Positions 6,921 through 41,207 of a stretch of 62,950 nt of DNA are shown here, piece after piece. Position 1 is the first letter of the stretch; the number at the start of each line of letters is the position of its first letter. The position numbers and the translations under genes were made by a program. Location: IMG/VR virus record IMGVR_UViG_3300050343_000162, positions 1-62,950 of that record; one strand, 5' to 3'. The notes beneath the pieces are model-generated. The model saw only the letters and a list, made by a program, of their open reading frames with translations, had not been told where the DNA came from and did no database searches. This stretch comes from a virus (lineage: Duplodnaviria > Caudoviricetes).

Positions 6921-6922
6921 AA

Positions 6923-7390: not shown

Positions 7391-7391
7391 T

Positions 7392-7532: not shown

Positions 7533-7543
7533 ATTAAAATAAA

Positions 7544-8214
7544 ATGGCAGTAAAATTTTCACAATTTACAACAGGTTCTTCCCTAGCAGATATAGATTAT
7601 TTCGTTGGGTATAAAGGAACTGACAATATACAAGTAGCGAAGTCCTTGTTATCTGGAACTACATATACGATAGATGTTCCAGCGGCAACTACAAACATCA
7701 ACTTAGCAGGTAGTGATTCTACGAATGATGCTATTACTCTGACAGGAGGAACAGGACATTGACTTTAACAAGAGTAAGTGCAAATGAGATATCATATTGC
7801 GTCACTGCGACTGTTGGAGACACGTATACTATAAAAGCGGGTGCAAAAGCTGGAAGTAGTGTTCCTTTACAATTAGACGCTGCTACTGGAACTGACTCAG
7901 CTGTAAATTTAACTCAAGGAGCTGGTATAACGCTAACTCAAACTTCTGCTACTGAAATTACAATTGCTGCTACTGCCACAGGAACATCAGTTGTTAAAGA
8001 TCAGTTTACAGGAAACAACTCAACAACAGCATTTACATTATCAGTAACGCCAACGGCAGCTGCTAATCTAAATATATTTATTAGCGGTGTATATCAAAAC
8101 TCCAAAGATTCTGGGGGAACGGCAAACTATACAGTTGCAGGAACGACATTAACTTTCGCAACAGCGCCACCGACAACCGCAGCAAATGGAATAGAAGTAG
8201 TAATAACACAATAA
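7544..8214 (+). CDS. Tail fibre/appendage protein (frameshifted)
   Basis: MAVKFSQF N-terminus, Thr-rich repeats, C-terminal FTGNNSTTAFTLS...ISGVYQ...YTVAGTTLTF module. Confidence 0.65.
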
Positions 8215-8224
8215 CGTTTAGCTC

Positions 8225-9290: not shown

Positions 9291-9291
9291 T

Positions 9292-10274: not shown

Positions 10275-10275
10275 T

Positions 10276-10800
10276 ATGGCAACAACAAAAGTAATAGGAG
10301 ACGTACTAGATTTAAATGAGTCGACTTCAGAGAGCGGCCTAAAAATACCTACAGGTACAAAGCTGAACAGACCTGCTACCGATGTGGCTGGTATGATTAG
10401 AAACAATACCAATGAAAATGAAGCATCTTCAGAAGGTTCAGCTTCTTGTGAAGAATATTACAATGGAGCGGCTTGGAAAAAAATAAACAATGCATCGGTC
10501 ACGGATTATCACAAACACCCGACGTGGTTTTATATAAACAATCGAGTCAAATTGCAAGTTGGTGGTGGTACACTAGTCTTATAGATGGAAGTTTTGATTA
10601 TATTAAACTTAACGCAGGAGATGCAAAAGGTGATTCATCTGGCGCAGGTTTTGATTCAACAACAATATTTGCAGAATCAGGTTCAGGAGGGCAAACAATG
10701 AACGCATATTGTTTCCATTCAGTCGAAGGGTACTCAAAGTTTGGCGTATATACAGGAACAGGAGCTGCCGGTAATACGGTAACAGTAGGATTTCAATTAT
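10276..10800 (+). CDS. Short or truncated tail fibre (frameshifted)
   Basis: MATTKVI..LKIPTGT..RP adapter followed by one GHGL..P / YCFHSVEGYSKFGVYTGTG module. Confidence 0.5.
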
Positions 10801-13800: not shown

Positions 13801-14653
13801 TACTTCAGGAAGCCCAACAATATCTGCAATTGGTTCAGAAACAATATTACAATATTTAGCAAGTGGAAGTTATACTCATAACCCAAGCACAGCAGCCGGC
13901 ACAATGAACTACATGGTTTTAGCTGGTGGAGCATCAGGAGCATCCAACGGTGGTGGTGGTGGTGCTGGTGGACTTAGAAGTTCTTGGTATGCTAGTGGTG
14001 GTGGTGCTGGCGGAGAAACACCTTTAACTTTATCAAGTGGAACATATACAATTACAATTGGTGCTGGTGGTGCAGAAGTAACAACATACCAAGACCCAGG
14101 TAATGACGGAACAGCGACTACGATCTCTGGAAATGCTACAGTGAATACTGTAGGAGGAGGAGGAGGAGGTTCTAATAACACTAATGCTGGTAGAAATGGT
14201 GGTTCTGGTGGTGGTGCGGGAGCTCATCCAGGTGCTGCATATAACGGAGGCTCTGGAACAGCTGGAGAAGGTTTTGATGGGGGTAGAGCTGGAGCAGTTA
14301 ATCAACCATACACAGGAGCTGGTGGAGGTGGAACGGGTGCTGTAGGAGAACCTAACAGCGCAAGTGCTGCGGGGGCTGGTGGAAATGGATTAGCATTAGG
14401 TATAACAGGAGCTTTAGTTAACTACGGTGGTGGTGGTGGAGGTACTGGAGGTACTGCAACAGGCGGGCTTAGTGGTGGTGCTGGTGGAGCTGGTGGAGGT
14501 GGTGCTGGTGGAGCCTGGTGGTTCAGGAAAAGTAATTTTAAGATTGATTACTTCTGAATACTCTGGAACAACAACAGGTTCTCCAACAGTAACAACAGAT
14601 GGAATGAAACAATATTAACATATACAGGGAGTGGAACATACGTTCACTCATAA
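10799..14653 (+). CDS. Long tail fibre with repeated YVAWCWKA/GFSKFGSYTGNG modules and two Gly-rich domains (multiple frameshifts)
   Basis: Adapter LKLPSGTTAQRP..GEWRYNTT; repeat modules 11000-13000; poly-Gly domains 13050-14550. Confidence 0.75.
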
Positions 14654-14665
14654 ATAAAATTTAAT

Positions 14666-14673
14666 TAACTTTG
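14666..14673 (+). promoter_or_regulatory. -7 promoter element TAACTTTG
   Basis: TAnnTTTG upstream of the ATG at 14687. Confidence 0.55.
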
Positions 14674-14686
14674 TAAAAATAATATT

Positions 14687-15065
14687 ATGGCACATTTTGC
14701 AGAACTTGACGAAAACAACATAGTACTACAAGTAATTGTTGTACACAACAATGAACTGCTTAGATGGTGAAACAGAAAGCGAAGCTAAAGGAGTAGAGTT
14801 TTGTTCTACGCTCTTTGGTCATACGAACTGGGTGCAAACTTCTTACAATCATAATATAAGAAAACAGTTTGCTGGAACAGGCTATACCTACGACTCAGAC
14901 AGTGATGTCTTTGTTGCACCTCAGCCCTACCCAAGTTGGTCTTTAGACGATAACTTTGATTGGCAACCCCCAACGCCAATGCCAGAGGATGATAACCTAT
15001 ATAACTGGAATGAGGAAACTCAAAATTGGGATTTAGTTGAACTTAATAATGATGACACAGAATAA
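14687..15065 (+). CDS. Fibre-associated accessory protein (one frameshift)
   Basis: MAHFAELDENNIV...WVQTSYNHNIRKQFAGTGYTYD..DVFVAPQPYPSW. Confidence 0.7.
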
Positions 15066-15066
15066 C

Positions 15067-15216
15067 ATGAATTTAGATTTTGAACCTACGGTACTTGGTA
15101 TTACTGTTTTAGTAGTTAGTATAGCGGAAATTAACCAAGGGTTGCAAAGTTTATTGTTTCTTGCTACCTTAGTGTATACAATCATTAAAATTGTTCAACT
15201 AATAAAGAAAAAGTGA
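15067..15216 (+). CDS. Small 2-TM protein, holin-like
   Basis: MNLDFEPTVLGITVLVVSIAEINQGLQSLLFLATLVYTIIKIVQLIKKK, overlapping the endolysin start. Confidence 0.55.
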   Translation: MNLDFEPTVLGITVLVVSIAEINQGLQSLLFLATLVYTIIKIVQLIKKK

Positions 15217-15569
15217 AATACTTTACACATGCAGAATTTGATTCTCCTGACTCTACTGACAGTGGAAGTAACATGGATGAATCTTTTTTACGTATGTTAG
15301 ACAGCGCACGTGAGGCTGCAGGAACACCATTCAGAATTAATTCAGGATTTAGAACACCTAAGCATAACAAGAAAGTGGGTGGCTCAGAGAACTCATCACA
15401 CCTAAGAGGGTTTGCAGCTGACATACATGTAGCGTCAAACAGCACAAGATATGTAATACTAGAAGCTTTGCTTAATGTAGGCTTTAATAGAATAGGAATA
15501 GCAGATACATTTATTCATGTAGATGCTGACCCAATAAAAACAAAAAACGTAATTTGGACGTATGCTTAA
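15213..15569 (+). CDS. Endolysin, peptidase M15A family
   Basis: INSGFRT..HNKKVGG..SSHLRG.AADI and FIHVD Zn-binding motifs. Confidence 0.9.
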   Translation: MKYFTHAEFDSPDSTDSGSNMDESFLRMLDSAREAAGTPFRINSGFRTPKHNKKVGGSENSSHLRGFAADIHVASNSTRYVILEALLNVGFNRIGIADTFIHVDADPIKTKNVIWTYA

Positions 15570-15933
15570 GCTTTTAAAAAAATTATTAGGATTTAGTGAC
15601 TCAGGCGTTGATGGCTTAGGTTTAGAGATAAGACAGCTTATTAAGGGAAAAGAGATTGACCCTCAAAAACTTATAGAGATGCAAACTGCTATCAATGAGA
15701 TGGAGGCAAAGCACAGAACAATCTTTGTGGCCGGATGGCGTCCCTTCATAGGCTGGGTGTGCGGGATTGCCCTTGCATATAATTTTATAATAAGAGATAT
15801 GCTAGTGTGGTATATGGGCGTAGAAACAGCGCCACCTGCTCTTCAGATGGAACATCTTATGACCGTGCTTATCGGTATGCTAGGACTGGGTGGTATGAGA
15901 ACGTTTGAAAAAATAAATAATAAATCTAATTAA
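15562..15933 (+). CDS. Holin (3TM, GTA-holin-like)
   Basis: FVAGWRPFIGWVCG...LIGMLGLGGMRTFEK signature. Confidence 0.85.
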   Translation: MLKLLKKLLGFSDSGVDGLGLEIRQLIKGKEIDPQKLIEMQTAINEMEAKHRTIFVAGWRPFIGWVCGIALAYNFIIRDMLVWYMGVETAPPALQMEHLMTVLIGMLGLGGMRTFEKINNKSN

Positions 15934-27475: not shown

Positions 27476-30400
27476 ATGGCAAACATTCAAAGAAATTTTG
27501 TAGCTGGGCGTATGAATAAAAGCCTTGACGAAAGGCTTATACCAAACGGAGAGTATATAGATGCTTTGAATGTTAGACTTGGTTCTACTGAAGAATCAGA
27601 AATAGGGGCTGTTGAAAATGCTAAGGGTAATACTACAGGTTACATCACTACAATATATAGACGGTACTGCACTAAGCAGCTCAGCTAGATGTATAGGAGC
27701 TTTTGAAGATGGTGCAAATGAAACTATTTATTGGTTTGTTCACGACCCTGCATTTACTGTAGGAGCAACTGGTAAATTAGATTTAATTGTTTCTTATAAT
27801 GTAATAACAGGCTCTCTTATTTATCATGTTATTAGTATTAATTCTGGTGATAATACAAATACTACTTTAAATTTTAATCCAAATTTTTTTAATAACATCT
27901 GTAAATAAAATAGATAATTTAATTTTTTTTACAGATAATTTAAATGCTCCAAGAGTAATTAATATAGATTTTAATTACTCTGTTCCATTTAATAATGTAG
28001 ACCAATTTAGCAATGAAGAAATTTTAGTAATAAAAAAACCGCCTCTGGCTGCACCAACATTAAATTTATTAAGCACTACTTTAGAAGATTCTTTTTTAGA
28101 AGATAATTTTATTTGTTTTGCTTATAGATATAAATATTCAAATGGCGAATATTCAGCTGTTTCGCAGTTTAGTGAACCTGCTTTTGACCCAAGTTTTTTT
28201 GAATTTTCTTCAAATAGTTTTTTAAACGAAGGAATGGTTAACTCCAAAAATGGAGTACAAATTACATATAATACGGGAAGTTCATTAGTAGTTGGTATAG
28301 ATTTATTATTTAAAGAAGCAAACGATCCTACTATAAAAATAATTGAAAAAATAAAAAAATCACCATTAGGACCACATAACACTAATGCAACTTATGTTTT
28401 TACAAACAGTAAAATATTTACTGTTCTTCCTGAAAGTGAAATATTAAGATTATATGATAATGTACCTAGACAAGCGAAAGCTCAAACTTTAATGGGTAAT
28501 AGATTGATTTATGGTAATTATACAGAAGGATATAATTTAATAGATATAAATAATCAACCACTAAATTTACAATTACACTGTTGCTTTAGACACTGAAGAT
28601 GCTAGTGGAGGTAGATTTAAATTCATCTAATTTATTGACATTTACTTATGACAGCTTTTGGTAATAATCAAAACATAAATACGGCTGGGTTTACTTTTGA
28701 TTTAGGTGGATATGAAAGTAAATTAATTCAAGGAGCTAATTAAATTTTCTTTTACTTATCAACATTTATCTTACAATAATGGGACAGATACCCAACTCAA
28801 CTGCAAGGAGAAACCCTAATTAATTTTCAATATGTTTTAGTTGATAATTATACTACAGTTTCAGCTTATATAATAGCTCAGATTTTCAATCAAAAATAGG
28901 GTTTAATAAGTTCTCAATTCAAACTGTAGCAGATGCTCAAAATGGTTTAGGTGCTAACGTTAACTGATGCGTTTAATTTTTCTTTATCACCAACTTTTCA
29001 GGTGGGGGAGTTAGTTAATATCTATAAATCAAACTGGATTAACTTCAAGCACAAGCTCAGTTCCTCCATCCTAATAAAGGTGAACCAATAATTCAATTTT
29101 AGTCGGAACTGAAATACAACTTTTATTTCCTGTAGCTCAATATATTCAAACATCACCAGGAACAAGTAATTTAATTGTATCATACAATACCTTTACATCT
29201 ATTAGTGCTACATTACAAGCTACTGCAGATTTACAAAGCTTACATAGTAATAGAGGTTATGAATTAGGAATAGTATACATGGATGAATATAACAGAGCTT
29301 CGACAGCTTTAGTTAGCAATAATAACACAGTAAATATTCCGTGCAGAAACTCTAAACTTTAAATAAAATTATTGCTACAATACCAACTACCCAAAGAGCT
29401 CCTTCTTGGGCAACAAGATATAAGTTTTGTTTAAAACCAGATAGAACAACTTATGAGACCATATATTCAAGCATATTTATTAATGACCCAAATTCAATAA
29501 TACTTTTTATTATTAGAAGGAGATAATATTGCTAAAGTTGAAGAAGGCGATAGATTAATTGTAAAAAGAGATGCTAACGGCCCGGTTGACAATCTTGTGT
29601 ATTATGCAACTGTTTTAGAAAAACAAACACAAGTCTGCGGACTTTATTACCCCTGCTAGTGGAAATCCTGTTCCAGGAGGAACATATATGAAAATGAACA
29701 TCTCAAGATTTTTCTACTGAGGAAAGTGCTATTGATATTATTTCTTTAGGAACTTTTCAGCAAAAAGCAGATAATCCTAATGAAAATCCAGTAGCAGCAT
29801 ATCCTTTTATACACTCAGAAACAGATGGAGCAACAAGCACAAATTATTAATGTGCCTAGCGGAAGTAGAATAGTAATGAAAATAAAACAAAGAAGAGAGG
29901 TGGGGGTGGGCCATGTGAAGAAAGAGACTAGTGTAATAGAAGAACAATTTATTGCGCAAGATACTTACACAGATATGTATCAATGGTTTATTGGCGATAA
30001 CAATGCAACATATGTAATAGAAAATAATGCTACTACTTATAGTGGAAACCTTTTCATGACCCGGTAGGAAACGTTGTTATTTCAGGTTTAGTTCCTGGTT
30101 CACCTACAGGTACTCCAGAAACAAATGGATACGCAGGAAATAATTTAGGTAATTGAACAATGTACACTATATTTGGAGGACAATCAAACAGCCCATCGAC
30201 GTGAAAGTGATTTACTTTTAAATAACTATTATAGGTTTTATGAAAAAAATACAAACAATACATATTCAATTTTTGTAAGCGGAACTGAAGCTTGTAATAA
30301 TGCTAGTACAGGAAGTAGATATAGGTCTCGTGTTGAAATTACTTTTACTGTTTTAGAAGAGATTCTGTGATTGTTTTTGAAACTGAACCACAAGAAGCTT

Positions 30401-33400
30401 TACCTGATGTGTGGTATGAAAATGAAGAATCATTTTCTATTGATTCAAAGGAAATCATAGTGGTAACATAACTAATCAAGATATATCTACAGGTGTTGCT
30501 GGAGTAGTTAATACAAATTTTTTAATTGTTTTGCTTTTGGTAATGGTGTAGAAAGTTATAAAATAAGAGATTCTTTAAATGGTAAATCTTTTAATTTAGG
30601 TAATAGAGTATTTACAACTTCTAACGTAGAATATAAAGAAGCTCATAGGTTTGCTGATTTAACTTATAGTGGTGTATATAATGATGAAACTAATGTTAAT
30701 AAATTAAATGAATTTAATTTAGGTTTAGCTAAATTTTAAACCACTTGAAGAAAGTTATGGGGATGTTGAAATATTATATGCAAGAAGAACTGATATACTT
30801 AGTTTTACAAGAAGATAAAATATCATACGTATTAGCATCTAAAAATATTATATCTGATTCTACTGGAGGAGGTTTAGTAGCTTCAGTTCCAGAAGTTTTA
30901 GGAAATCAAATAGCACGTATAGAAAACTATGGTATTAGTAATAACCCAGAAAGTTTTGTGGCTTGGGGTGAAAATAAATATTTTACTGATGTTAAAAGAG
31001 GTGCTGTAACTTCAATTAATGGGTGGCTCTGCTTCAGATGAAAGACTTATAGTTATATCTGAAACTGGAATGAGAAGCTGGTTTAGAGATTTATTTACAG
31101 AGCATTTACTACTCAAAAATTAGGAGGTTACGACCCTTACATGGATGAGTATGTTTTAACTTCAAATACAATATTAAAACCTGAAATACCAGTTTGTTTA
31201 GCGTGTGGTGTTACTAAAGATATAACAATAATAGCTAATCAAGACTTTGTTTATTGTGTAGATGTTACTGAGCAAACAGGAACTGTAACAGTAAGTTATG
31301 TAATCCCACAAGAAGGAGAGCAAGATATTGAAAGCGAAACTAGCGTATTGATGACAGATGAATCTGGAATTCAACTAATTACAGAGGGTCTCAATCTCAA
31401 ATTGGTTATACAATAAAAGCTATATATAAAGGTGTAACATATACATCAGGTTCTGTTACTGCTTCAGGTAGTTTTACATTTGATAAAAATGTTCCAAGTG
31501 TAGAAGAGGTTACATAGTGGTTAGTTCAAATTCAGACCAAAACGATACTATTCAAATAAATGTAAGTTGTCCAGAGAGCAGGCGCATTAAACATATATAA
31601 CATTTGTGTTACTGACCCACTTGAAGCTGGACAATTTATACACAACGAATTTAGTTGGACTGACGGAACTACTGTTTCACCAATAGAATCTAATTTAGTA
31701 GAATTTACAAGCACATCTTCTTCTTTTGCTATATCACAATACCAGTTATTTTCTGGACCACAGGGAAGTGGAGTTTTCCAACTGACGGGTCTACTGTAAC
31801 TGTATCTTCAAACAAAATTAATTTTGATGATTTTGTATTTAACCCTTCAACAGATAGATTAAAATATTTAAGAACAAACACTTTTTATCAAAATAATGTA
31901 ACAGACATAACAAGTTTACTTTCTTTAGCAATTGATGCAACACCAATATCTACAGTTGGCGCTCCAACAATTTATTCGGTAGATTTCACTATGCCAGCAA
32001 GCGGAAGTATTTTATATTTAGTGTGGGATTATAGGTCTACAGCATCTCCAACGCCAACACCTACGCCTACACCAACTTCCACTGGCCCAACGCCGACTCC
32101 GACTCAGACGCCTACGCCGACTCCGACTCCGACTCCGACTCCGACTCCTGGTCCAACACCAACTCCGACACCGGTTGGTCCAAGCCCAACTCCGACTCCG
32201 ACTCCTGGCCCAACACCAACTCCGACTCCTGGTCCGAGCCCAACACCTGGTCCGAGCCCAACACCTGGTCCAACGCCTACTCCAGGTCCAACGCCTAGTC
32301 CTTCTACTAGTTGTAGTGAGTGGACGCTAGCTTGTCCAAGTGGAAGCAGTGGATGTGGTTATTCCTACACTGATTGTGATGGAAACACTCAATCAGGAGT
32401 ATTACCTGGAGATTATGATATAGACGTTTGTGTATTAGACGGAACAACACCTATTATTAGTAATGGTAGTGCAAACAATACAAATATAGCTTGTCAACCT
32501 ACACCATCGCCTAGTCCTGGACCAACACCAACACCAACACCAACTGGTCCAAGTCCAACACCTACACCTTCTGCAAATTGTACGGAGTGGGTATTAGCTT
32601 GTCCAAGTGGTTCAGGAGGATGTAACTTTAGTTATACTAATTGTGATGGAGATGTTATAAGCGGATCATTAGCACCAGACTTTGATGTAGATGTATGTGT
32701 GTTAGTTGGAACAACCCCTACAGTAACCGGAGGTAGCGCTAATGACACTGGTGTAAGTTGTCCTACACCATCGCCTGGACCTAGTCCATCGCCTAGTCCG
32801 TCACCTAGTCCATCGCCTAACCCTGGACCTAGTCCTACACCTACCCCGACGCCAACACCTGTACCATCACCAGCTTGTACAGAGTGGACGTTAACGTGTC
32901 CTAGCGGAGGAACAGGATGTAGCTATTCTTATACAGATTGTGACGGAAACACTCAGACAGGAAATTTACCAGGCGATTATGATATTGATGTTTGTGTTCA
33001 AACTGGAACCACTCCAAATGTAAATGGAGGAACAGCCTCTAATACAAACGTCGCTTGTGTTCCACCACCAGCGCCTACACCTACACCTGTAGCGCCTACA
33101 CCTACACCTACACCTGTAGCGCCTAGTCCTACACCAACGCCTAGTCCTACACCGAGTCCAGTTGCACCGACGCCTACACCAACACCTGTAGCACCGACAC
33201 CTACGCCTACACCTACTATATCGTATGATGATTATACAATTACAAGGTGTGATGGAGGATTTAATAATTATACTGTAGGTAGAGCAGTGGCGGGAACATT
33301 CCCAACCAATTCTGTGCTGTTGATGCCAGATGGTAACTGTTATGAAATAATTGACCCTACTGGAACATTAGGTACAATAGCTAATGCAATATACTCGAAT

Positions 33401-33865
33401 TGTTCTGCATGTTCAACGCCTACGCCTAGTCCTACGCCTACGCCTACGCCTACTATACCTAGTCCTACGCCTAGTCCTACGCCTAGTCCTACGCCAAGCC
33501 CTACGCCAAGCCCTACACCAAGTCCTACGCCTACGCCAACTGTGCCAAGCCCTACACCTACGCCGGTGCCGGTGCCGTCTCCAACCCCTGCGCCAAGACC
33601 TACGCCTACACCTACAGCGTGTATTGGAATTGAAGTTGGATACTCCACAGGTCTTTATTACGGTTGTTGTGCACCTCCAGATAATAGTGGTATTAAATAC
33701 TTTAATGCAAATTCTATAGCTACAGCTACAAGAATGTATGATGGGTTTACTTGCTCTACACTTGAGAGCGGAACAATTTATGTTAGTGAGTTTGGTTCTA
33801 CTTATTATGAATTTTTCAACGGAGTTAAAACTGCAGGACCAATATCTTGTCCATCATGTCCGTAA
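27476..33865 (+). CDS. Tail nozzle/stabilization protein with C-terminal Pro/Thr-rich, Cys-repeat extension (heavily frameshifted; 31991..33865 intact)
   Basis: N-terminal [28 protein letters not shown]; GNRLIYGNY; [10 protein letters not shown]; continues via LYLVWDYR into (PT)n tracts. Confidence 0.7.
32045..33620 (+). repeat. Pro-Thr/Pro-Ser coding tracts interspersed with three ~60-aa Cys-rich repeats
   Basis: ccgact/cctacg/cctagt hexamer arrays; CxEWxLxCPSGxxGCxxSYTxCDG repeats near 32312, 32579 and 32876. Confidence 0.95.
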
Positions 33866-34291
33866 AAACAAAAGAGTTTATACATAAAGTCAATAAACAT
33901 TTAAATGGCAATGTAATTGTTTTAGGCGGTTGGTCTAAACATTTTAATGGTTACATAGAGAATTATGACAAACACTGGATAGATATAAGTATTACTCCTG
34001 AATCTGTAGATTTAGTTTGTGAGTTAGGATTAAAATTAGATATAAATGGAGGTCATTCCTGGGGAGGATCATATAATAAATCAATTTACTGTCATGTGTG
34101 GTGTTAAACCAAACCGATATTTTTTAGATGTTTTTGTGTCAAATAAATTAGAGGGGTATAAAGAAATAAATGATTTAAAAATATTAACACCTCAAGCAAA
34201 TATAAAGTGGCATAAAGAAGCTTATGATATGCTTCAATACGAATGGTTGTCAGAAAAAATTACGAATCTAAAAAACCTTTACAATATTTAA
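33856..34291 (+). CDS. Nucleotidyltransferase-fold-like protein (frameshift in the G-run near 34061)
   Basis: IVLGGWS...WIDISI...LDVF resembles a degenerate Pol-beta NTase motif. Confidence 0.4.
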
Positions 34292-34345
34292 TATTTTTTT
34301 AATTGGTTTATAATTAATAACTTTAATTAAATTTAATCTAATCTA

Positions 34346-35618
34346 ATGCAAGAATATAAAAATTTCCTCACACCCGAGGAGTGTCAAGAATTAATTAAAA
34401 TGATTGACGCAAACCACAGTAGATCATCAGTTGTTGAGGGTGGAACCGATAGAACTGCAATATCTGATTACAGAACATCAAGCACCTGTAATCTTGACTC
34501 CTAACAACCCATTAATTAAAAGTATACATAACAGAATAGCTGATTTATTAGGTATAGATATTAAAAAAGGTGAAGCTTTACAAGGGCAACTTTATGAGGT
34601 AGGACAATATTTTAAACAACATAATGATTTTTTTGAAGGAGCTGGATACGATATGCATTGCAAAGCCTCTGGCAATAGAACGCATACTTTTATGGTATAT
34701 TTAAATGAAGGAATTAAAGGAGGTGGAACTAATTTTCCAAATCTTAATAAAGTTGTAGAGCCTGAATTAGGTAAGGCTTTAATGTGGGAAAATATGAAAG
34801 ATGGAGAATTGCAACACCAATACCTGCATGAAGGTGTTTCTGTTGAAGAGGGTAAAAAATATATTGTTACATCTTGGTGGAGAGAAAAATCGTGGGATGG
34901 AGCTGGGGATGAAAAATTAGCATCCCAACCGCAAGAAAAACCTAAACAAGAAATACAAAAAAAATCATATATAGTTAAATCCTCTGAATTAACTAAAGAA
35001 GCTGAAAAAGAACAAATAAAAATTCAACCAGTTAAATATACCCATAAAGACCAGATACCTAAATTTACAGAATTAGGATTTTCTTTAGTAAAATGCCCTG
35101 AAGAAACATGGAATATTATAAAAGATTCTTATGAGATACTAAAGGGTAAGATTACCAACGAGCAATTTGCGGGTAAAGAAGATATTATAAAAGGTGGAGA
35201 AAGCGAAATAATGTCATTCGATCATTTGCCTTCAATTAAAAAAATTATACACGAACAACTTTTAACAATTCATCAAAACTGGATTAAGGTTCAAAATATA
35301 ATTCCATCTGCTATATATGGAATTAGGTCATATAAAAGAGGTGCAACTTTATCAAAGCATGTAGACCGAGTAGAAACTCATCATATAAGTTCTATTATTA
35401 TTGTAGATAAAGATTTAAATTGTGGCTGTCAAAACAGAAAATATGGAGACGATTGGCCATTAGATATTCAAGGGCATGATGGAGAATGGTATAAAGTTTT
35501 TGCTGAGCCAGGAGACATGATTATGTATGAGTCAGCAATATGTGAACACGGAAGAGAAGAAGCTTTTCAAGGCACTCATTATAGAAATTTTTATGTTCAT
35601 TATAAATTAACAAATTAA
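34346..35618 (+). CDS. Prolyl 4-hydroxylase fused to a second 2OG-Fe(II) oxygenase domain (one frameshift near 34500)
   Basis: Off-track N-terminus MQEYKNFLTPEECQELI..RSSV..RTSS; ALQGQLYEVGQYFKQHND, MVYLN..GGGTNFP, LHEG..V.EG.KY..TSW; second domain YGIRSY..LSKHVD...CEHGR. Confidence 0.85.
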
Positions 35619-35625
35619 ATTTTAT

Positions 35626-36642
35626 ATGAGTAAAACAATACTTATAACAGGCGGCGCAGGTTTTATTGCTCATCATGTGATTGAAGAAATATTAAATAAA
35701 ACTGATTGGAACGTTATAAGTTTAGACAGGTTAGATTTTAGTGGCAACTTAAATAGGCTACAAGATATAGTTGGAGAACGAAAAGATAAGAAAAGAGTTA
35801 AAGTCGTTTATCATGATTTAAAAGCACCTTTAAATTCACAAATTATTTCCTCTATAGGCAGGGTAGATTACATTGCACATCTTGCCGCAGGCTCACATGT
35901 AGATAGAAGTATAGATTATCCAATGGAATTTGTTCTTGATAATGTAGTCGGAACTGCTAATATTCTTGATTATGCTAAAAGCATAGACAGCTTAGATAAG
36001 TTTGTATATTTCAGCACGGATGAAGTATTTGGTCCAGCTCCTAAAGAAATAAACTACAAAGAGAACGACAGATATAACTCTACTAATCCATACAGCGCAA
36101 CCAAAGCAGGGGCAGAAGAATTAGTTGTGGCTTATGAAAATACTTATAGGATGCCAAACATAATCACTCATACCATGAATGTATTTGGTGAAAGACAACA
36201 TCCTGAAAAGTTTATACCTATGTGTATTAACAAGATTTTAAAAGGAGAAAAAATATTTATACACGGCAACAAAGAAAAAACCTTAGCTGGGAGCAGGCAC
36301 TATATTCATGCTAAAGATGTAGCTGATGCCCTGTTGTTTTTACTCCAAAATAACACCCCATCTGTTGCTGATGAAACTGGCATCAAGTGTCCTAAATTTA
36401 ACATAGTCGGTTCAGAGGAAATTGATAATCTATCATTAGCTTTATATATTGCTGATGTACTTGATAAAAAATTAAATTATGAAATAATTGATTTTCATTC
36501 TTCAAGACCAGGGCATGATTTACGCTACGCTCTTTGTGGAAATAAAATGAAACAAATGGGGTGGACACCGAGTGAAGTATATAAAAAGTTAAAAGAAACA
36601 GTCAATTGGACTGTGTCTAACAATATATGGCTTAAAATATAA
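35626..36642 (+). CDS. NDP-glucose 4,6-dehydratase (RmlB-like extended SDR)
   Basis: GGAGFIA, HLAAGSHVDRS, STDEVFG, YSATK, QHPEKFIP, RPGHDLRY. Confidence 0.92.
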   Translation: MSKTILITGGAGFIAHHVIEEILNKTDWNVISLDRLDFSGNLNRLQDIVGERKDKKRVKVVYHDLKAPLNSQIISSIGRVDYIAHLAAGSHVDRSIDYPMEFVLDNVVGTANILDYAKSIDSLDKFVYFSTDEVFGPAPKEINYKENDRYNSTNPYSATKAGAEELVVAYENTYRMPNIITHTMNVFGERQHPEKFIPMCINKILKGEKIFIHGNKEKTLAGSRHYIHAKDVADALLFLLQNNTPSVADETGIKCPKFNIVGSEEIDNLSLALYIADVLDKKLNYEIIDFHSSRPGHDLRYALCGNKMKQMGWTPSEVYKKLKETVNWTVSNNIWLKI

Positions 36643-37476
36643 ATGATAAGATTTTTACCTAGCGCAATAGTTGATCCTCGATATAAATGGATGGCAAACT
36701 TTTGGGCATACTGCCAAAAAAAAGTATACGGTAAGGATGCTTTATATAATAGTCTAGTAACTATTGTTAATCAAAATACATATAATAGTAAAGTATATAA
36801 TTCAGTCGATTGGGATTTACTTGGATTGCCTCATTACATAAGCCCTCCCGTTTGGAATTACGTTGATAGTAAAAATGATTTATGTATAGTAATTAATGTA
36901 GTATCTTCTTTAAAACCCCTGCTTAAAGATTTTGATGACAACGATACTTTAGTATTGTGTGATATGGATATGGTTTTATTAAAACCGTATGATAGTATTT
37001 TACCTGACGACAACACTATTATTTGTTATGATGGTTACGAGGATTGGCACATGTTTATAGCTAATAAAGAAAAACAAAACTATAATAAAATAGTACCGTA
37101 TTTAAAACATCAAGACCAGGGGTATATGAATGGTGGCTTTGTTCCTATTTTTATAAAAGCAAAACTATTAAAAAAAATTATAGATGAATTAATAGCAACT
37201 GCTGAAGAAATTGTGGAGTCTGAAGAAGATCCACCATGGAAATGGTGGAGCTGTATGACTGCTTTATCAATAGTATGCCATAACAATAAAATTAAAATGG
37301 TTGGTCAAGATAATACCTATATACCTAATTTTAATAAGTATAACCAAGACAAACATTACTTCGCCCATTATAGCGTAGACCCTATATTTAACAAAAGAAC
37401 TTTTCCTAATCATAAAATAGACGAGTATCCAAACAACTCTTTTTATAACGTTATTAAGGAATGGATTGTCCGATAA
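36643..37476 (+). CDS. GT-A glycosyltransferase resembling hydroxyproline O-arabinosyltransferase (GT95) / peptidyl-Ser galactosyltransferase (GT96)
   Basis: RYKWMANFWAYCQKK, IVIN, LCDMDMVLLKP (DxD), VPIFIKAKLLKKI, WWSCMTALS, AHYS..FNKR in the HPAT motif order. Confidence 0.65.
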   Translation: MIRFLPSAIVDPRYKWMANFWAYCQKKVYGKDALYNSLVTIVNQNTYNSKVYNSVDWDLLGLPHYISPPVWNYVDSKNDLCIVINVVSSLKPLLKDFDDNDTLVLCDMDMVLLKPYDSILPDDNTIICYDGYEDWHMFIANKEKQNYNKIVPYLKHQDQGYMNGGFVPIFIKAKLLKKIIDELIATAEEIVESEEDPPWKWWSCMTALSIVCHNNKIKMVGQDNTYIPNFNKYNQDKHYFAHYSVDPIFNKRTFPNHKIDEYPNNSFYNVIKEWIVR

Positions 37477-37497
37477 AAGACATTGCATTTAAATTCG

Positions 37498-37505
37498 TAT
37501 TTTTG
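37498..37505 (+). promoter_or_regulatory. -7 promoter element TATTTTTG
   Basis: Upstream of the ATG at 37522. Confidence 0.5.
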
Positions 37506-37521
37506 TAGTTATTAATCAATA

Positions 37522-40113
37522 ATGAGTTGTAAAGAATCTAAAATAATATGTCCAATAGGGGCAACAGGAGGAGAGTGTACATTTGATATTTTATGTTGTG
37601 GTGATTTAGAAGACCAGTATTCATCCCATACTATAAGCGCTGGTGTACAAAAAACAGTTTGTGTACAAGACAGTGATTTAGAACCTGTAATTGTTACATC
37701 TATATCAGGTAGTAGAACGAACTCATCAGTAGTTTGTAGTTCTTTTTGTGGAGAATTAAATCCTGCTCCAAGCCCAAGCCCTTCACCTGCTCCAAGCCCA
37801 AGCCCTTCACCAACACCTACTCCAACTTCAGGATGTCAATGTTATCAATTGTTATATGAAGATGCTGGAACAGCAACTATAAATTACACAGCGTGTGGTG
37901 GTGGAGCAACAAGTATAGTAATAAATCCTTTAACGTTATATTATATATGTTCTACAACAACTCCTACTACTAGTGACCCGGCTGTAACAATATCAGCGTT
38001 TGGCAGTCCAGGCGGGTGTACAACAAATACAGATTGTGACCCAAATCCTCCGACTCCAACACCAGTACCGACGCCTACGCCGACACCAGGGCCAACACCA
38101 ACACCCGTGCCAGCCCCTACTCCGACACCTACGCCTCTTCCGACACCCACACCTGTGCCAACTGGTGTTCAGTGTTATGAATGGACATTGGTATGTCCAA
38201 GTGGCTCCATAGGTTGTTCTTATGAATTTATAGATTGTAATGCAGTAACACAAACAGGAACTCTTGCTCCTGACACAGATATAGATGCGTGTGTTTTATT
38301 CCCAAACACACCTCAAGTAACAAATGGAACAGCTATAGAAACAGGAGTGGCTTGTCAAGCCCCTAGCCCTAGCCCTAGCCCTAGCCCTGGTCCTGCTCCA
38401 ACACCTACACCTAGCCCTACTCCAACTCCTTCATCTGGATGTACCGAATGGACTTTATTATGTCCGAGTGGCGCTTCTAGTTGTACTTATTATTATAGGG
38501 ACTGTGATAACGTAGTACAAACTGGTACTATGTCACCAGATTTTGATTTTGATGCTTGTGTTTTAGCGGGCAACATACCTACTGTGCAAAACGGAAGCAC
38601 GTTTAACACAAATCAACCTTGTGATCCAACGCCAAGTCCTGCACCCTCACCAGTTTATGAATATAAAGAATACAGTAAGTGTAACGACAGCAGTACAGTT
38701 CAAGTATTTTATGGACCTAGTGGATATAATTTTCCTTCAGTAGTGGTTTACAATGAAAGTTGTTATGAAAATCCACAGCCCACTGGAACTTCTACAGGAG
38801 CTAACATTTTAGGACTCCCAACATATTCTAATTGTACAGATTGTTTGGATGTAAATCCAGACCCTAACTTTTGTTTAGGGTTAACCAATACAGTATTAAT
38901 TGTTAATAGAGGTTCAGGTAATGAATATGAATTTAATGGGCAAGATGGTAACCCATACGGAACATCAACAGGAACATACACGCTATTATCTGTTCCATCT
39001 GCACACCCTATTGCTATATTAAATAATGGTAAAGAGTCTTTAATTTCATACACAGGAACTACTAGCGCAGGTACAGGGACAGCTCCAGATGGAAACACAT
39101 ACACATATTATATCGGTGACGTTACATTGACGGTAACCGGAGATTACCAGACAGTAAGTTATGCTTGTTTATATCACGGATATATGGGTGGTCAAGACAA
39201 CTTAGGATTTAATTCTACAGTTTGTAGTGTGCCGCCAGCGCCTAGTCCATCGCCTGGACCAAGCCCTACACCGACACCCTCAAGCGTAGTTCCTCCTATA
39301 CCATCGCCTGTAGATACGGAGTACACTTTAACATATAGTCAAACGTCTAAAGGGTGGCCTTCTTTTTATTCTTATATACCAAATTTTATGCTTGGTATGA
39401 ATCAGTATTTTTATTCATTTGATGCAGGAAATCTTTATCAACATAATGTAAATGGAAGTAGAAATAATTTTTATGGACAGCAATATAGTTCTCAAATAAC
39501 GACGGTGTTTAATCAAAACCCGCTTGAGAATAAAATATTTAAAACTATCAATTTAGAATCAGATCAGGCGTGGCAAGCGAATTTAGAAACAGATATACAA
39601 CAAAACGGATTTATTGAAAGCACTTGGTTTAAAGAAAAAGAAGGTGCTTATTTTGCATTCCTAAGACAAAACGGAGAAGTGCCAGCGCTTCCAGGACAAT
39701 ACGCAATGAGGTCAGCTAACGGAATAGGAAAATCAGTAAGTTATACAACTGTCGGCAGCACCACAACTTTAAATTTTTCTACTAACCCTGTTGTTGAAAT
39801 TGGAAACATTGTAAGTATTGGAGATTATTTATATTTTTCCCTACCAAGCTATACTAGTATAAGTTTAGCTGGAAAGATAACAAATATTAATATTAATATA
39901 CGTACAGGCATAAACCAGATATCAATAGATACAAGTATATCTGGTGCTATACCGATAACTATTCAAGATGCGTTTATACTTTATATTAAAAGTTCTGTTG
40001 CAGAATCCCACGGTTTACTTGGTCACTATTGTATATTTACTTTAATAAATGATAGCACTAAATCCACCGAACTCTTTGCAGTTGAATCCGAAGTAATGAA
40101 AAGCTATCCGTAA
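37522..40113 (+). CDS. Virion protein: N-terminal Pro/Thr/Ser tracts and Cys repeats, cupredoxin-like domain, C-terminal stabilization-protein-like domain
   Basis: (PS/PT)n tracts, two CxEWTLxCPSG repeats, HP...CLYHGYMGG, then TLTYS..SKGWPSFYSY...TELFAVESEV. Confidence 0.8.
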   Translation: MSCKESKIICPIGATGGECTFDILCCGDLEDQYSSHTISAGVQKTVCVQDSDLEPVIVTSISGSRTNSSVVCSSFCGELNPAPSPSPSPAPSPSPSPTPTPTSGCQCYQLLYEDAGTATINYTACGGGATSIVINPLTLYYICSTTTPTTSDPAVTISAFGSPGGCTTNTDCDPNPPTPTPVPTPTPTPGPTPTPVPAPTPTPTPLPTPTPVPTGVQCYEWTLVCPSGSIGCSYEFIDCNAVTQTGTLAPDTDIDACVLFPNTPQVTNGTAIETGVACQAPSPSPSPSPGPAPTPTPSPTPTPSSGCTEWTLLCPSGASSCTYYYRDCDNVVQTGTMSPDFDFDACVLAGNIPTVQNGSTFNTNQPCDPTPSPAPSPVYEYKEYSKCNDSSTVQVFYGPSGYNFPSVVVYNESCYENPQPTGTSTGANILGLPTYSNCTDCLDVNPDPNFCLGLTNTVLIVNRGSGNEYEFNGQDGNPYGTSTGTYTLLSVPSAHPIAILNNGKESLISYTGTTSAGTGTAPDGNTYTYYIGDVTLTVTGDYQTVSYACLYHGYMGGQDNLGFNSTVCSVPPAPSPSPGPSPTPTPSSVVPPIPSPVDTEYTLTYSQTSKGWPSFYSYIPNFMLGMNQYFYSFDAGNLYQHNVNGSRNNFYGQQYSSQITTVFNQNPLENKIFKTINLESDQAWQANLETDIQQNGFIESTWFKEKEGAYFAFLRQNGEVPALPGQYAMRSANGIGKSVSYTTVGSTTTLNFSTNPVVEIGNIVSIGDYLYFSLPSYTSISLAGKITNININIRTGINQISIDTSISGAIPITIQDAFILYIKSSVAESHGLLGHYCIFTLINDSTKSTELFAVESEVMKSYP

Positions 40114-40135
40114 AAATTAGTATCTTTACACTAGT

Positions 40136-40543
40136 ATGGACTTTAGTATAAGAAAATTAAAGACATCTGATTATGATGAGTTATTGGTAGGGTGGTGGAA
40201 AGATTGGGGGTGGAAACCTCCAGAAAGAGAAGTATTGCCAGATAATGCTAAATCAGGGTTAATAATTTTTGATAAAACTAAACCTATATGCGCTGGTTTT
40301 ATTTATTTAACTAACTCCAAGGTTGCGTTAATTGAATGGGTAATATCAGATAAAAAATATAATGATAAAAGAAAAAAAGTAAAAGCTTTAAATTTATTAA
40401 TAGACGCATTAATATTAACTTGCAGCATATTAAAGATTAAATATATAAAAGCTGATAATGAAAGTAAAAGTTTAACAAAAGCTTTTATAAAAAAAGGTTT
40501 TGAAAAAGGAGATATAGTTACACATCTAATAAAAAAAATATAA
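40136..40543 (+). CDS. GNAT-fold-like protein preceding internal virion genes
   Basis: IRKL..SDY, PICAGFIY, EWVISD, terminal KKGF; position typical of podoviral acetyltransferase-like genes. Confidence 0.55.
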   Translation: MDFSIRKLKTSDYDELLVGWWKDWGWKPPEREVLPDNAKSGLIIFDKTKPICAGFIYLTNSKVALIEWVISDKKYNDKRKKVKALNLLIDALILTCSILKIKYIKADNESKSLTKAFIKKGFEKGDIVTHLIKKI

Positions 40544-40544
40544 T

Positions 40545-41207
40545 ATGGGAGCAGGATTCGGAAACATAGCAGATACAGCAACTAAAGCCACTGGCGCAGC
40601 GGGAGGTGGTGGATTCTTAGGTAGTTTAGGTGGAGCTTTAGGTAAAATAGCTGGGCCATTAGGGTTGGTTACAGGTATTGCTGGTTCAATAATGAGTTTT
40701 AGTCAAGCAAAAAAACAAAGAGAAATGCAACAAGAAGCTCAACGTGAAGCTGATAAAGCATTTAAAGAAGCTCAAGACAAATTAGAAGTTAATTATTTAG
40801 AAGGTCTCTCAATAGCTAAAGAACCTTATGAATTAGAAAGAGAAGCCTTACTTCAAGCTGGAGCTTCAGCCTTACAAGCTGGAGTAGAAGGAGAAACTAG
40901 AGGGGCGGCTGCAGTAGCAGGGCAAGCCTTGATGGCTCAGCAAGCAGGGGCAGCAGGACAAAGAGCGGCAATGTCTAGAGAAATGCAACAACTACAGCAG
41001 TTAGCCGCACAAGAAGAGTCAAGGCTACAAGGCGCAAGAGTTGAATTAGATTTAGGAAAAGCTAAAGGATATCAAGCGCAGTTAGCTGATTTAAGAGCTA
41101 GTGAGGCAGCATCAAGATTACAGGGGGTGCAAGGAATTGCTCAAACATCTGGTGATTTATTTAAAGCATTTACTCCTTTATATAATCCTAACGAACAAGA
41201 TTCATAG
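40545..41207 (+). CDS. Putative ejection (internal virion) protein 1
   Basis: Gly/Ala-rich hydrophobic N-terminus plus Gln/Ala coiled coil. Confidence 0.65.
   Translation: MGAGFGNIADTATKATGAAGGGGFLGSLGGALGKIAGPLGLVTGIAGSIMSFSQAKKQREMQQEAQREADKAFKEAQDKLEVNYLEGLSIAKEPYELEREALLQAGASALQAGVEGETRGAAAVAGQALMAQQAGAAGQRAAMSREMQQLQQLAAQEESRLQGARVELDLGKAKGYQAQLADLRASEAASRLQGVQGIAQTSGDLFKAFTPLYNPNEQDS

Follow-up and report, generated by a model that had tools for sequence, protein, structure and literature searches.

The window, a stretch of 62,950 bp that is the complete genome of an uncultured marine phage related to Cellulophaga and Flavobacterium podophages, carries among its tail genes a cassette whose enzymes, to judge from sequence, would modify the phage's own tail post-translationally; we give this reading a probability of about 0.6. 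By means of these genes, summarized in Table 1, the phage probably hydroxylates and sugar-coats its own tail. The cassette and both flanking tail genes are all on the plus strand, where an earlier sequence-only reading had placed them. That reading also set the cassette within the tail module, in agreement with the neighbouring genes, which match PHROG virion structural proteins, and with the crAss_MUZ_C domain of the 863-aa protein. Between two tract-bearing proteins the order is an NTase-like gene, a two-domain oxygenase, a 4,6-dehydratase-like SDR and a GT-A transferase, all co-directional with gaps of -19 to about 54 nt and embedded in the string of structural genes. The four genes originally described are present, but the second oxygenase domain had been overlooked, as had the frameshifts in three genes (those for the large virion protein, the small NTase-like protein and the oxygenase), which are probably assembly errors.

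Table 1. Cassette genes and flanking virion genes in the window.
Feature	Coordinates	Strand	Listed ORF	Match
Virion structural protein, 306 aa	26554..27474	+		phrog_13977 'virion structural protein', E 2e-38
Large virion/tail structural protein, ~2,130 aa	27476..33865	+	31991-33865 (624 aa)	phrog_14478, E 7.5e-208
Small accessory gene, 147 aa if intact	33847..34291	+	33847-34291 (two overlapping small ORFs, one gene)	
Two-domain Fe(II)/2-oxoglutarate oxygenase	34346..35618	+	34404-35618 (404 aa)	PF13640, E 1.1e-13
Extended SDR, NDP-hexose 4,6-dehydratase-like	35626..36642	+	35626-36642 (338 aa)	PF16363, 2.4e-51; PF01370, 2.5e-49; phrog_540, 1.2e-96
Soluble GT-A glycosyltransferase, 277 aa	36643..37476	+	36643-37476 (277 aa)	Pfam HPAT (PF23452), matched by the family
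Muzzle-like tail protein, 863 aa	37522..40113	+	37522-40113 (863 aa)	PF25729 crAss_MUZ_C, E 2.2e-20; phrog_38031, 2.3e-96

Upstream of the large tail protein, the 306-aa protein forms a conserved anchor of synteny, with 69-96% identity in relatives. It is syntenic with gp113 of Cellulophaga phage phi18:3, annotated as structural from MS/MS in that record, and homologues of neighbouring genes in phi18:3 are annotated as structural from MS/MS proteomics. The large virion gene is one unbroken ORF in the relatives L001 (2979-9374, 2,131 aa) and L060; in the window it has at least six frame changes between 27476 and about 32000, and the tblastn matches of the L001 protein switch frame. The first flanking protein of the sequence-only reading does contain tracts, but its 624 aa are merely the C-terminal end of this gene product. 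Eight (Thr/Ser-Pro)n tracts of 11-65 residues each lie in that end and space out three 62-aa Cys modules (CxEWxLxCPSG) and two other Cys-rich modules. The muzzle-like protein begins with an extension peculiar to the clade (residues 1-586), in which six (Ser/Thr/Ala-Pro)n tracts occur together with Cys-rich modules; the rest, residues 587-863, is the conserved C-terminal part of the muzzle. Relatives that lack the cassette have this part by itself, at 241-296 aa, such short homologues being encoded in MW202828.1, by gp115 of phi18:3 and in 49 IMG/VR loci.

In a regular-expression scan of both strands, covering all stop-to-stop frames of 60 aa or more, 247 tract residues were found in frame 31694-33862 and 109 in frame 37516-40110; the remaining matches in the window have at most 29 residues, and all are antisense frames of other genes. 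It was therefore correct that long (Thr/Ser-Pro)n tracts occur in only two proteins, which flank the cassette. Of the 146 prolines in the first flanking protein 122 lie within tracts, as do 57 of the 96 in the muzzle-like protein, mostly preceded by Thr or Ser, and the GC content of the two tract regions is 0.467 and 0.396 compared with about 0.30-0.35 nearby.

The true start of the oxygenase is the ATG at 34346, and its frame is split by a 1-nt insertion near 34499 in this assembly. The protein consists of a P4H N-domain, a disordered linker and a divergent second 2OG oxygenase C-domain with its own HxD...H...R, which resembles cyanophage oxygenases. By its sequence the N-domain is a prolyl 4-hydroxylase, as had been proposed; it is of the collagen type, none of the catalytic residues is missing, and the fold agrees. 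All eight PDB sequence matches are prolyl 4-hydroxylases; the phmmer values are 6.8e-18 for the B. anthracis enzyme, 2.9e-15 for human C-P4H alpha-2, 4.7e-8 for that of PBCV-1 and 2e-5 for that of Chlamydomonas. Foldseek also returned prolyl 4-hydroxylases, with target-length-normalised TM scores of 0.63-0.72 to these same enzymes, the value for the algal P4H solved with a (Ser-Pro)5 peptide (3gze) being 0.72. H92, D94, H161, K171, H401 and R413 are the same in all 22 sequences compared; H338 and D340 are almost invariant.

The small accessory gene, confined to the window's nearest relatives, has a 1-nt insertion near 34068 (DNA alignment against L060 and L001) and is intact in L060 (4805-5248) and L001 (9356-9799). 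It has no match in Pfam, NCBIfam or PHROG. The NTase-like call has a language-model lead as its sole basis, with 3 of 30 matches in an Atlas feature search being aminoglycoside-2''-adenylyltransferase clusters at 0.96, and the product is possibly a minimal nucleotidyltransferase.

The SDR begins 7 nt past the oxygenase stop, and we assign it a putative role in sugar-nucleotide supply. Its identification as an NDP-glucose 4,6-dehydratase agrees with the Pfam and PHROG matches, but the score against NCBIfam TIGR01181 (dTDP-glucose 4,6-dehydratase) is 247 bits, below the equivalog cut-off of 365.1. The cassette contains no 3,5-epimerase or 4-reductase. The GT gene begins at the base right after the SDR stop. 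Its product has no membrane anchor; the AF2 model (pLDDT 95, pTM 0.92) opens with a strand at residue 2 and has a GT-A fold, predicted with confidence. The best Foldseek matches were GT6 GT-A enzymes (E 1e-7, TM about 0.5). The proposed likeness to GT95/GT96 is supported at the level of the family, not of the window's copy. The sole Pfam family matched by this small, mostly viral GT family is HPAT (hydroxyproline O-arabinosyltransferase), found in 22 of 30 aligned members (E<=0.01, best 2.3e-12), with 25-47 bits against a cut-off of 23.9 in the members rescanned, and precomputed in 19 of 29 homologues; the window's own GT has no HPAT match, and 8 of the 30 members likewise have none. D107 and D109 of the DxD motif are invariant in the family alignment. 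A profile search of 1.84 billion representatives gave only 80 relatives, among which no canonical plant-type HPAT was seen (10 of the 80 were Pfam-scanned), so the tie to GT95 is remote.

The sequence-only reading had suggested looking for co-occurrence of cassette and tracts in relatives, and it was found. A neutral set of 80 loci was assembled with the muzzle C-domain as the only criterion. P4H occurs in 28 of them, all with tracts and 27 with a GT; of the 52 lacking P4H, 49 encode a short muzzle protein and are devoid of both tracts and GT. Of the 31 loci in the set that have tracts, 28 keep P4H, and one of the other three is not long enough for a verdict. L033 has P4H and a slot without GT. 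The cultured relatives are in the same empty state, with neither cassette nor tracts. In a quick tree of the muzzle C-domain, the loci positive for P4H and tracts form one clade (27 rows, SH-aLRT 95); as the co-occurrence is confined to this clade, a single gain is probable.

The glycan genes are a swappable island: relatives retain P4H and tracts and exchange the sugar genes, often for GT60 enzymes. In those without the HPAT-like gene, the slot directly after P4H is taken by PF11397 enzymes (E 6e-14 to 2.3e-39). The genes swapped in are of GT60, O-FucT-like, GT32-like, carbamoyl-, sulfo- and deacetylase types, and four proteins (P0042, P0046, P0054 and P0057) fuse the HPAT-like and GT60 types. 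PF11397 is equated with GT60 in PMC6418280. The replacement speaks for the tail-modification reading, GT60 being the family of the Skp1 hydroxyproline GlcNAc-transferase and of the T. cruzi polypeptide GlcNAc-transferase (PMC6939170).

The pairing also exists beyond this clade. With a distant HPAT-like profile, 39 loci were found in other phage lineages; 20 have a P4H-domain match (18 strong), and 14 have the P4H and GT genes side by side on one strand. This clade's tail markers are absent from all 39, only a minority of which have a Pro-rich ORF within 8 kb. In Pseudohongiellaceae chromosomes, an HPAT-like domain is fused to a Cupin_8/JmjC oxygenase.

Beyond the observed gene identities, catalytic residues, architecture and co-distribution, we infer the substrate, acceptor residue, sugar and purpose. 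The P4H domain would act in the cytoplasm of the host at a late stage of infection, using Fe2+, 2-oxoglutarate and O2 to hydroxylate prolines of the (Thr/Ser/Ala/Gly-Pro)n linkers, which are C-terminal in the large virion protein and N-terminal in the muzzle-like protein. The HPAT-family GT-A enzyme, with its DxD and presumably metal-dependent, would then transfer the sugar of a nucleotide sugar to the new hydroxyproline or a neighbouring Ser/Thr, and the 4,6-dehydratase would feed or divert the donor pool towards a sugar derived from a 6-deoxy-4-keto-hexose. The products would be extensin- or mucin-like glycosylated polyproline-II spacers that hold the small Cys-rich modules out from the tail muzzle; roles in stiffness, protease resistance, camouflage or adhesion are speculation.

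The proposal that P4H and a GT95/GT96-like transferase act on the flanking tracts agrees with all the genomic tests run, but it is qualified by the single clade and by two loci, L060 (the window's sister) and L086, which have tracts and GTs, including a GT60-like and a 762-aa GT32-like gene, and no P4H. The sugars may therefore sit on Thr/Ser and not on Hyp. It is accordingly conceivable, though unlikely, that the GTs sugar Thr/Ser of the tracts directly, with P4H stiffening the linkers, acting elsewhere or being dispensable. The Thr or Ser before most tract prolines fits this, as do GT60, which also includes Thr-directed polypeptide GlcNAc-transferases (as given in PMC6939170), and GT96, the extensin Ser galactosyltransferase family related to GT95 (HPAT) according to a review (PMC8012813). 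The retention of P4H with tracts in the neutral set, the adjoining P4H and HPAT-like genes of other phages and the bacterial fusion to a hydroxylase argue against it. We see a low probability that the tracts are plain flexible linkers and the slot a hot spot for unrelated cargo, with no enzyme-substrate relation. Secreted bacterial enzymes commonly have Pro-Thr linkers as spacers, the slot content is highly variable and the association is limited to one clade; nevertheless, P4H, protein O-GT families and sugar-tailoring enzymes come together in all 27 GT-positive loci, and P4H-GT pairing recurs elsewhere.

2OG oxygenases are widespread phage auxiliary genes, and PHROGs classes these families as 'moron, auxiliary metabolic gene and host takeover'. 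The oxygenase could thus hydroxylate a host protein such as a translation factor, while glycans of the host surface would be remodelled by the dehydratase and GT; the location among tail genes would then be incidental. A host target is possible because the title of the deposited structure 5v7y describes the B. anthracis P4H, the nearest homologue with a solved structure, as modifying EF-Tu too, and the cyanophage-like C-domain points the same way. We nonetheless think this improbable, since the cassette is restricted to the clade that gained tracts, both slot GT families are protein O-glycosyltransferase families and the genes are packed within the late structural string. Phages also pair dioxygenases with GTs on DNA (bioRxiv 10.1101/2023.12.21.572611). 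For this module a role in DNA hypermodification, in which the oxygenase would hydroxylate a base and the GT glycosylate it, is barely credible: the oxygenase matches prolyl hydroxylases only and not TET/JBP-type enzymes, the GT families are protein-directed and the module lies among tail genes.

The tail-modification reading has its closest counterparts in four known systems. In the plant and green-algal HRGP pathway, P4H is followed by HPAT (CAZy GT95) on Hyp and SGT1 (GT96) on Ser. The phage has a collagen-type P4H matching the Chlamydomonas enzyme, a GT family matching Pfam HPAT and (Ser/Thr/Ala-Pro)n repeats as candidate substrates; on the other hand, its GT is soluble, only 277 aa and anchorless, would act in the bacterial cytoplasm instead of the Golgi and belongs to a family only remotely like HPAT (25-49 bits), its sugar enzyme is a 4,6-dehydratase and not of the UDP-arabinose route, and its P4H is fused to a second oxygenase domain. 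A virus-encoded collagen-type P4H is also known from chlorovirus PBCV-1 (PDB 5c5t), reportedly described by Eriksson et al. in 1999, and the N-domain resembles it in sequence and fold. PBCV-1, however, is a eukaryotic giant virus, and we know of no adjacent Hyp-GT or tract-bearing structural gene described for it. A reference-list item in the review Chloroviruses (PMC7019647) indicates that hydroxyproline was not detected in PBCV-1 particles. In the protist Skp1 pathway, as outlined in PMC6939170, the prolyl 4-hydroxylase PhyA acts before Gnt1 (GT60), which adds GlcNAc to Hyp. The cytoplasmic P4H followed by a soluble GT is similar, and relatives carry PF11397/GT60 after P4H, whereas a GT60 gene is absent from the window, modification would fall on long repeats of virion proteins and not on one Skp1 proline, and the P4H is collagen-type, not PHD-type, by best matches. 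Mycobacteriophages likewise have phage-encoded glycosyltransferases acting on their own structural proteins (Freeman et al. 2023, as cited in PMC12619734), but there, as that source presents it, the glycans are at the C-termini of capsid and tail-tube subunits, and the system involves no hydroxylase, uses other GT families and has actinobacterial hosts.

In the literature we found no published report of a bacterial virus hydroxylating and sugar-coating its own tail, consistent with the view of the sequence-only reading that no bacteriophage pathway of this kind had been described.

The genes were found where the sequence-only reading had placed them, and long (Thr/Ser-Pro)n tracts are confined to the two + strand proteins that flank the cassette, all other scoring frames being antisense. 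Tract residues number 247 in the large virion protein and 109 in the muzzle-like protein, and the residue before a tract proline is Thr or Ser in most cases. The tracts alternate with small Cys-rich modules of several types in a beads-on-string layout; one type is a 62-aa six-Cys unit with the motif CxEWxLxCPSG, present in five copies (see the table). No Pfam family was matched by any Cys-rich module between the tracts. These modules are candidate binding modules displayed on linkers.

Coordinates of the features discussed in the text
Sequence	Positions	Feature	Remarks
Window	1-12700; 27476-34500	Fragmented regions	No long ORFs over long stretches
Window	27476-33865	Large virion protein gene (~2,130 aa)	C-terminal tracts
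Window	28914, 28955, 28997, 29070, 29088, 29590, 29592, 29605, 30449	Indels	Public-run contigs versus window
Window	32312-33060; 38173-38625	62-aa six-Cys modules	Five copies
Window	33847-34291	147-aa gene	Small ORFs merged; extra base near 34068
Window	34346	Oxygenase start codon (ATG)	Extra base near 34499
Window	34404-35618	Oxygenase ORF as listed	Late start
Window	33868-34268; 34347-37473	Stretches each bridged by a run X9 contig	Joint sides 72 and 27 letters long
Window	37522-40113	Muzzle-like protein gene (863 aa)	N-terminal tracts
Window	40136-40543	135-aa gene, phrog_17252	Directly 3' of muzzle gene
L001 (nearest intact relative)	11119-15815	Variable island	Second HPAT-like GT, 237-aa protein, galactose-3-O-sulfotransferase-like (phrog_3347), APS-kinase-like, cytidylyltransferase-like, SDR, PIG-L-type deacetylase
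L030 (relative)	11122-12865	Alternative island	GT60-like gene with different partners
L017 (relative)	8935-12802	Alternative island	GT60-like gene with different partners
L060 (relative)		Locus without detected P4H	Order: tract protein, 147-aa gene, 408-aa GT60-like, 762-aa GT32-like, tract-bearing muzzle
L137 ('Mycoplasmatota' MAG)	1-2731	2.7-kb contig	SDR, 273-aa protein, GT
L138 (Pseudohongiellaceae MAGs)	7971-9920	HPAT-like domain fused to Cupin_8/JmjC oxygenase	649-679 aa, chromosomal
L143 (Planctomycetaceae MAGs)	3411-5795	FkbM methyltransferase-GT60-HPAT-like fusion	JmjC-like gene upstream

The window takes up a whole IMG/VR virus record (62,950 bp) with a CheckV completeness of 100%, and a megablast of 31000-41000 against deposited phages returned no near-identical phage. 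With the last 303 residues of the 863-aa protein, tblastn found 116 phage records, all below 60% identity (97 Flavobacterium, 15 Cellulophaga, 2 Tenacibaculum, 1 Maribacter and 1 uncultured), and residues 645-716 of this protein match Pfam PF25729 (crAss_MUZ_C) with 73.3 bits against a cut-off of 27, as a crassvirus-type muzzle protein. The gene order around the muzzle gene is common to the window, Cellulophaga phage phi18:3 (Pachyviridae) and MW202828.1: a structural protein of ~270-306 aa is followed by another of ~1,550-1,612 aa, a muzzle-like protein of 241-267 aa, a 136-aa protein and more virion proteins. Proteins of this conserved string carry an MS/MS-based 'structural' annotation in the phi18:3 record. 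Therefore, the cassette belongs to a stretch of tail/virion genes in a podophage of flavobacterial type. Promoter-like sites in the window show no excess (80 compared with 76.4 in shuffles) and terminator-like sites number 13 compared with 8.1 +/- 2.6, so that no transcription unit can be drawn from these counts. The shares found in RNA runs were small (0.05-0.19). As a separate observation, the homologue of the 135-aa phrog_17252 gene is labelled 'N-terminal acetyltransferase complex subunit' in MW202828.1. This gene is kept in relatives with and without the cassette, and it may encode another protein-modifying enzyme of the tail module.

The 624-aa tract protein of the sequence-only reading had to be extended: its ORF is the end of a gene of ~2,130 aa, the product of which matches phrog_14478 'virion structural protein' (E 7.5e-208). 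This gene is an unbroken ORF in L001 and L060 and has at least 6 frame changes in the window. The listed oxygenase ORF, owing to its late start and the extra base in the gene, lacks the first ~50 residues that are present in all relatives. In both fragmented regions, translation with code 11, TAG=Q or TGA=W leaves long stretches devoid of long ORFs. Reassigned stop codons were rejected as a cause, since neither TAG=Q nor TGA=W closes these regions and the breaks in 27476-34500 are frame changes instead. In the second region, single-base frame changes relative to the relatives account for the broken ORFs of the large tail, 147-aa and oxygenase genes. Contigs of public runs differ from the window by nine indels in the large gene, and the oxygenase 5' end is spanned by two contigs of other runs with one gap in each; contigs only were compared, and uncovered stretches and joints with sides below 30 letters were not counted as evidence. 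The breaks are probably assembly or sequencing errors in an indel-prone assembly. One contig of run X9 joins across each of two stretches of the window, the second of which is exactly the oxygenase-SDR-GT block. These joins are a hint of population variants with a different island, a weak one since their sides are short.

In the AF2 model of the intact L001 protein, the oxygenase consists of two domains and a disordered linker (pLDDT 79.8 overall; most 10-residue blocks of both domains 80-96, some N-domain blocks 42-74). The N-domain matches PF13640 (2OG-FeII_Oxy_3) with 52.4 bits against a cut-off of 27 (E 1.1e-13), in agreement with the P4H proposed before. All 8 of its PDB sequence matches at E<=1 are prolyl 4-hydroxylases, among them those of B. 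anthracis (6.8e-18), human C-P4H alpha-2 (2.9e-15), PBCV-1 (4.7e-8) and Chlamydomonas (2e-5). The Foldseek comparison with the L001 model gave the same picture, with 3itq, 3gze, 2jig, 5c5t and 7zsc at TM 0.63-0.72 (normalised by target length); an algal P4H bound to (Ser-Pro)5 is among the fold matches, and the double-stranded beta-helix can be superposed on solved P4Hs. Residues H92, D94, H161 and K171 are invariant in 22 sequences. Features of collagen-type P4Hs are an HxD...H iron triad and a 2OG-binding Lys ~10 residues past the distal His. By sequence and fold, the N-domain is of the collagen-type prolyl 4-hydroxylase family, and it would hydroxylate peptidyl proline.

The C-domain has a separate set of HxD, His and Arg residues, of which H401 and R413 are invariant while H338 and D340 vary only slightly. 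A profile search of the PDB gave nothing better than E 0.084 for it, and a Pfam scan of all 20 C-domain sequences gave chance matches only. It is 32% identical to a cyanophage oxygenase, and language-model features, as a mere lead, place it near viral 'P4H alpha 2OG' clusters (0.92-0.93). The layout recalls the two-barrel arrangement of OGFOD1/Tpa1, in which the second barrel is inactive.

For the 277-aa glycosyltransferase, the window protein alone has no match in Pfam, PHROGs or NCBIfam, a chance match only among PDB sequences (E 0.68), and no tblastn match in deposited phages. The family is small, with 80 representatives among 1.84 billion. In a search of 5.8 billion proteins, 19 of 29 homologues carry a precomputed PF23452 (HPAT) assignment, and PF23452 is the sole family found at E<=0.01 in 22 of the 30 aligned members, some of which share 80-81% identity with the window copy. 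The PF23452 model, 'Hydroxyproline O-arabinosyltransferase family', has a cut-off of 23.9 bits, and the members that were rescanned reach 25.1-47.3. The AF2 model (pLDDT 95) has a GT-A fold with an invariant DxD (D107, D109); its nearest Foldseek matches are GT6 GT-A enzymes (E 1e-7), generic viral GT-A proteins are also near, and no HPAT structure is among the 50 PDB matches listed. The GT-A glycosyltransferase expected here is supported by fold and motif, but the HPAT match is found in relatives and not in the window copy. HPATs transfer L-arabinofuranose from UDP-Araf to peptidyl Hyp. Compared with plant HPAT (GT95), which an excerpt of PMC8012813 describes as having a type II Golgi membrane anchor, the phage enzyme is a soluble form: the first strand of the model begins at residue 2, within the core sheet, and an N-terminal hydrophobic helix is lacking. 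The same excerpt relates GT95 to GT96, the extensin Ser galactosyltransferase.

On the other two genes the earlier assignments hold in part. The SDR scores best among NCBIfam families against TIGR01181 (dTDP-glucose 4,6-dehydratase, RmlB), ahead of LegB, GalE and Gmd, and its translation has the extended-SDR motifs in the stretches GGAGFIA, YSATK and STDEVFG; 4,6-dehydratases are marked by the GxxGxxG NAD site, YxxxK and a Thr-Asp-Glu catalytic stretch. An NDP-glucose 4,6-dehydratase fits in best family and motifs, but the score of 247 bits is below the equivalog cut-off of 365.1. The SDR points to a 6-deoxyhexose as the sugar; the enzymes downstream of the dehydratase are absent from the cassette, and the host may supply them. 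The neighbouring 4,6-dehydratase argues for a sugar other than L-arabinofuranose. For the 147-aa protein, the nucleotidyltransferase lead is weak. Its gene is confined to the nearest relatives of the window, and neither this protein nor the 227-, 237- and 273-aa cassette proteins match NCBIfam or PHROGs. A 192-aa L001 protein matches phrog_3347 and nothing in NCBIfam.

Oxygenase and GT searches of IMG/VR brought in 57 loci, and the same order was found in all of them: a large (or second large) protein with tracts at its end, the two-domain oxygenase, a variable island, and a muzzle-like protein that begins with tracts. The island contains an HPAT-like GT, with or without the SDR and two uncharacterised proteins; or a PF11397 GT, either by itself or next to an O-FucT-like protein, a carbamoyltransferase or a radical-SAM/SPASM protein; or a PF04488 DXD GT. 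The L001 island hints at sulfated and de-N-acetylated glycans. In L030 and L017 the GT60-like gene is accompanied by a radical-SAM/SPASM protein, or by an O-FucT-like protein, a NodU/CmcH-type carbamoyltransferase and a small PhyH-like protein, so a single clade would tailor its glycans or peptides by several routes. In an excerpt of PMC6418280, PF11397 carries the annotation GT60, and an excerpt of PMC6939170 names the Skp1 hydroxyproline GlcNAc-transferase Gnt1 and the T. cruzi polypeptide GlcNAc-transferase as GT60 members. Together with GT95 and GT96, this means that the slot was repeatedly filled by families in which the known enzymes add sugars to the Hyp, Ser or Thr residues of Pro-rich peptides. 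The contig L137, with genes 68-81% identical to those of the phage clade, is most likely a phage fragment mis-binned into a MAG.

Since the 57 loci are biased, having been picked by the cassette itself, a second search was made with the muzzle C-domain alone, and the best 80 of 545 relatives were kept. A P4H is present in 28 of the 80; every one of these has tracts, and a GT accompanies the P4H in 27, that is, in all but the short fragment L115. Among the 52 loci without P4H, 49 have neither tracts nor GT, and their muzzle protein is short (265-296 aa); at least 5 kb upstream of the muzzle gene was available in 48 of these 49. In the other three (L060, L086 and L065), tracts and GTs are present and no P4H was detected. 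With only 453 nt upstream, L065 cannot be judged; L060 and L086 are the real exceptions. Not one of the 80 loci has the cassette without tracts, the pattern by which the sequence-only reading would have been refuted. On a quick C-domain tree, the tract-bearing loci form one clade (27 rows, SH-aLRT 95) with L060 sister to the window. The co-distribution therefore reflects a single gain, followed by one or more losses of the P4H, and does not count as a series of independent events. Beyond the clade, a distant HPAT-like profile found 39 loci, all without the clade's tail markers. A P4H-domain match is present in 20 of the 39 (18 strong), the P4H gene adjoins the GT gene on the same strand in 14, and a Pro-rich ORF within 8 kb was detected by the tract regex in only some. 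Near the bacterial HPAT-like fusions L138 and L143, no Pro-rich neighbour was seen within 8 kb. From the P4H neighbours in phages and the JmjC partners in bacteria, the GT family accompanies protein hydroxylases of two kinds, as expected if the GT uses a hydroxylated side chain.

The target of the P4H could possibly be a host protein instead of the tail tracts, because the nearest solved P4H, that of B. anthracis, is reported on EF-Tu as well (title of 5v7y). The analogy with chlorovirus PBCV-1 is weakened by an entry in the reference list of PMC7019647, according to which Hyp was not detected in its particles. In the best-supported mechanism, the tract prolines would be hydroxylated and O-glycosylation would come next, both in the cytoplasm and either ahead of tail assembly or while it proceeds; from the genomic evidence we give this mechanism a probability of roughly 0.6. 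As first put forward, this reading is well supported at the genomic level; the feature exists as described, and most of the enzymes were identified correctly. The sugar may sit on Hyp or on Ser/Thr, because L060 and L086 are without P4H and both GT60 and GT96 include Ser/Thr enzymes.

A more far-reaching proposal, which we hold only tentatively and consider somewhat less probable than its opposite, is that phages carry out a complete eukaryote-like Hyp O-glycosylation in the bacterial cytoplasm. P4H and soluble HPAT/GT60-type GTs would turn the Pro-Thr/Ser-Pro spacers of the tail into extensin- or mucin-like glycorods, and a rapidly swapped island would diversify the glycan (carbamoyl, sulfo, deacetyl and 6-deoxy variants). 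If this is true, the glycans on the tail form a changeable surface, which adjusts how the phage adheres to particles and to algal or host surfaces, or lets it escape recognition, and the long-unexplained 2OG oxygenases of aquatic phages are at least partly virion-protein hydroxylases.

Hyp O-glycosylation is considered a distinguishing trait of plants, green algae and some protists, and the phage cassette would bring a form of this known pathway into a new host setting. Full-text literature searches turned up neither a bacteriophage P4H-glycosyltransferase system nor Hyp in the virions of phages. Two key enzyme types of Hyp glycosylation in phages, beside matching repeats, would extend this chemistry to bacterial viruses and the bacterial cytoplasm, and would give the abundant 2OG oxygenases of aquatic phages a concrete role. 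They would also be a second example of glycosylated phage virions, with a mechanism unlike that known from mycobacteriophages (as cited in PMC12619734). For the production of Hyp-glycosylated peptides in bacteria, useful tools could be the compact P4H and the HPAT-like enzyme, which is soluble and has 277 aa. Finally, the swappable glycan island suggests selection on the chemistry of the tail surface, a matter of relevance to host range and to the adhesion of phages in the sea.
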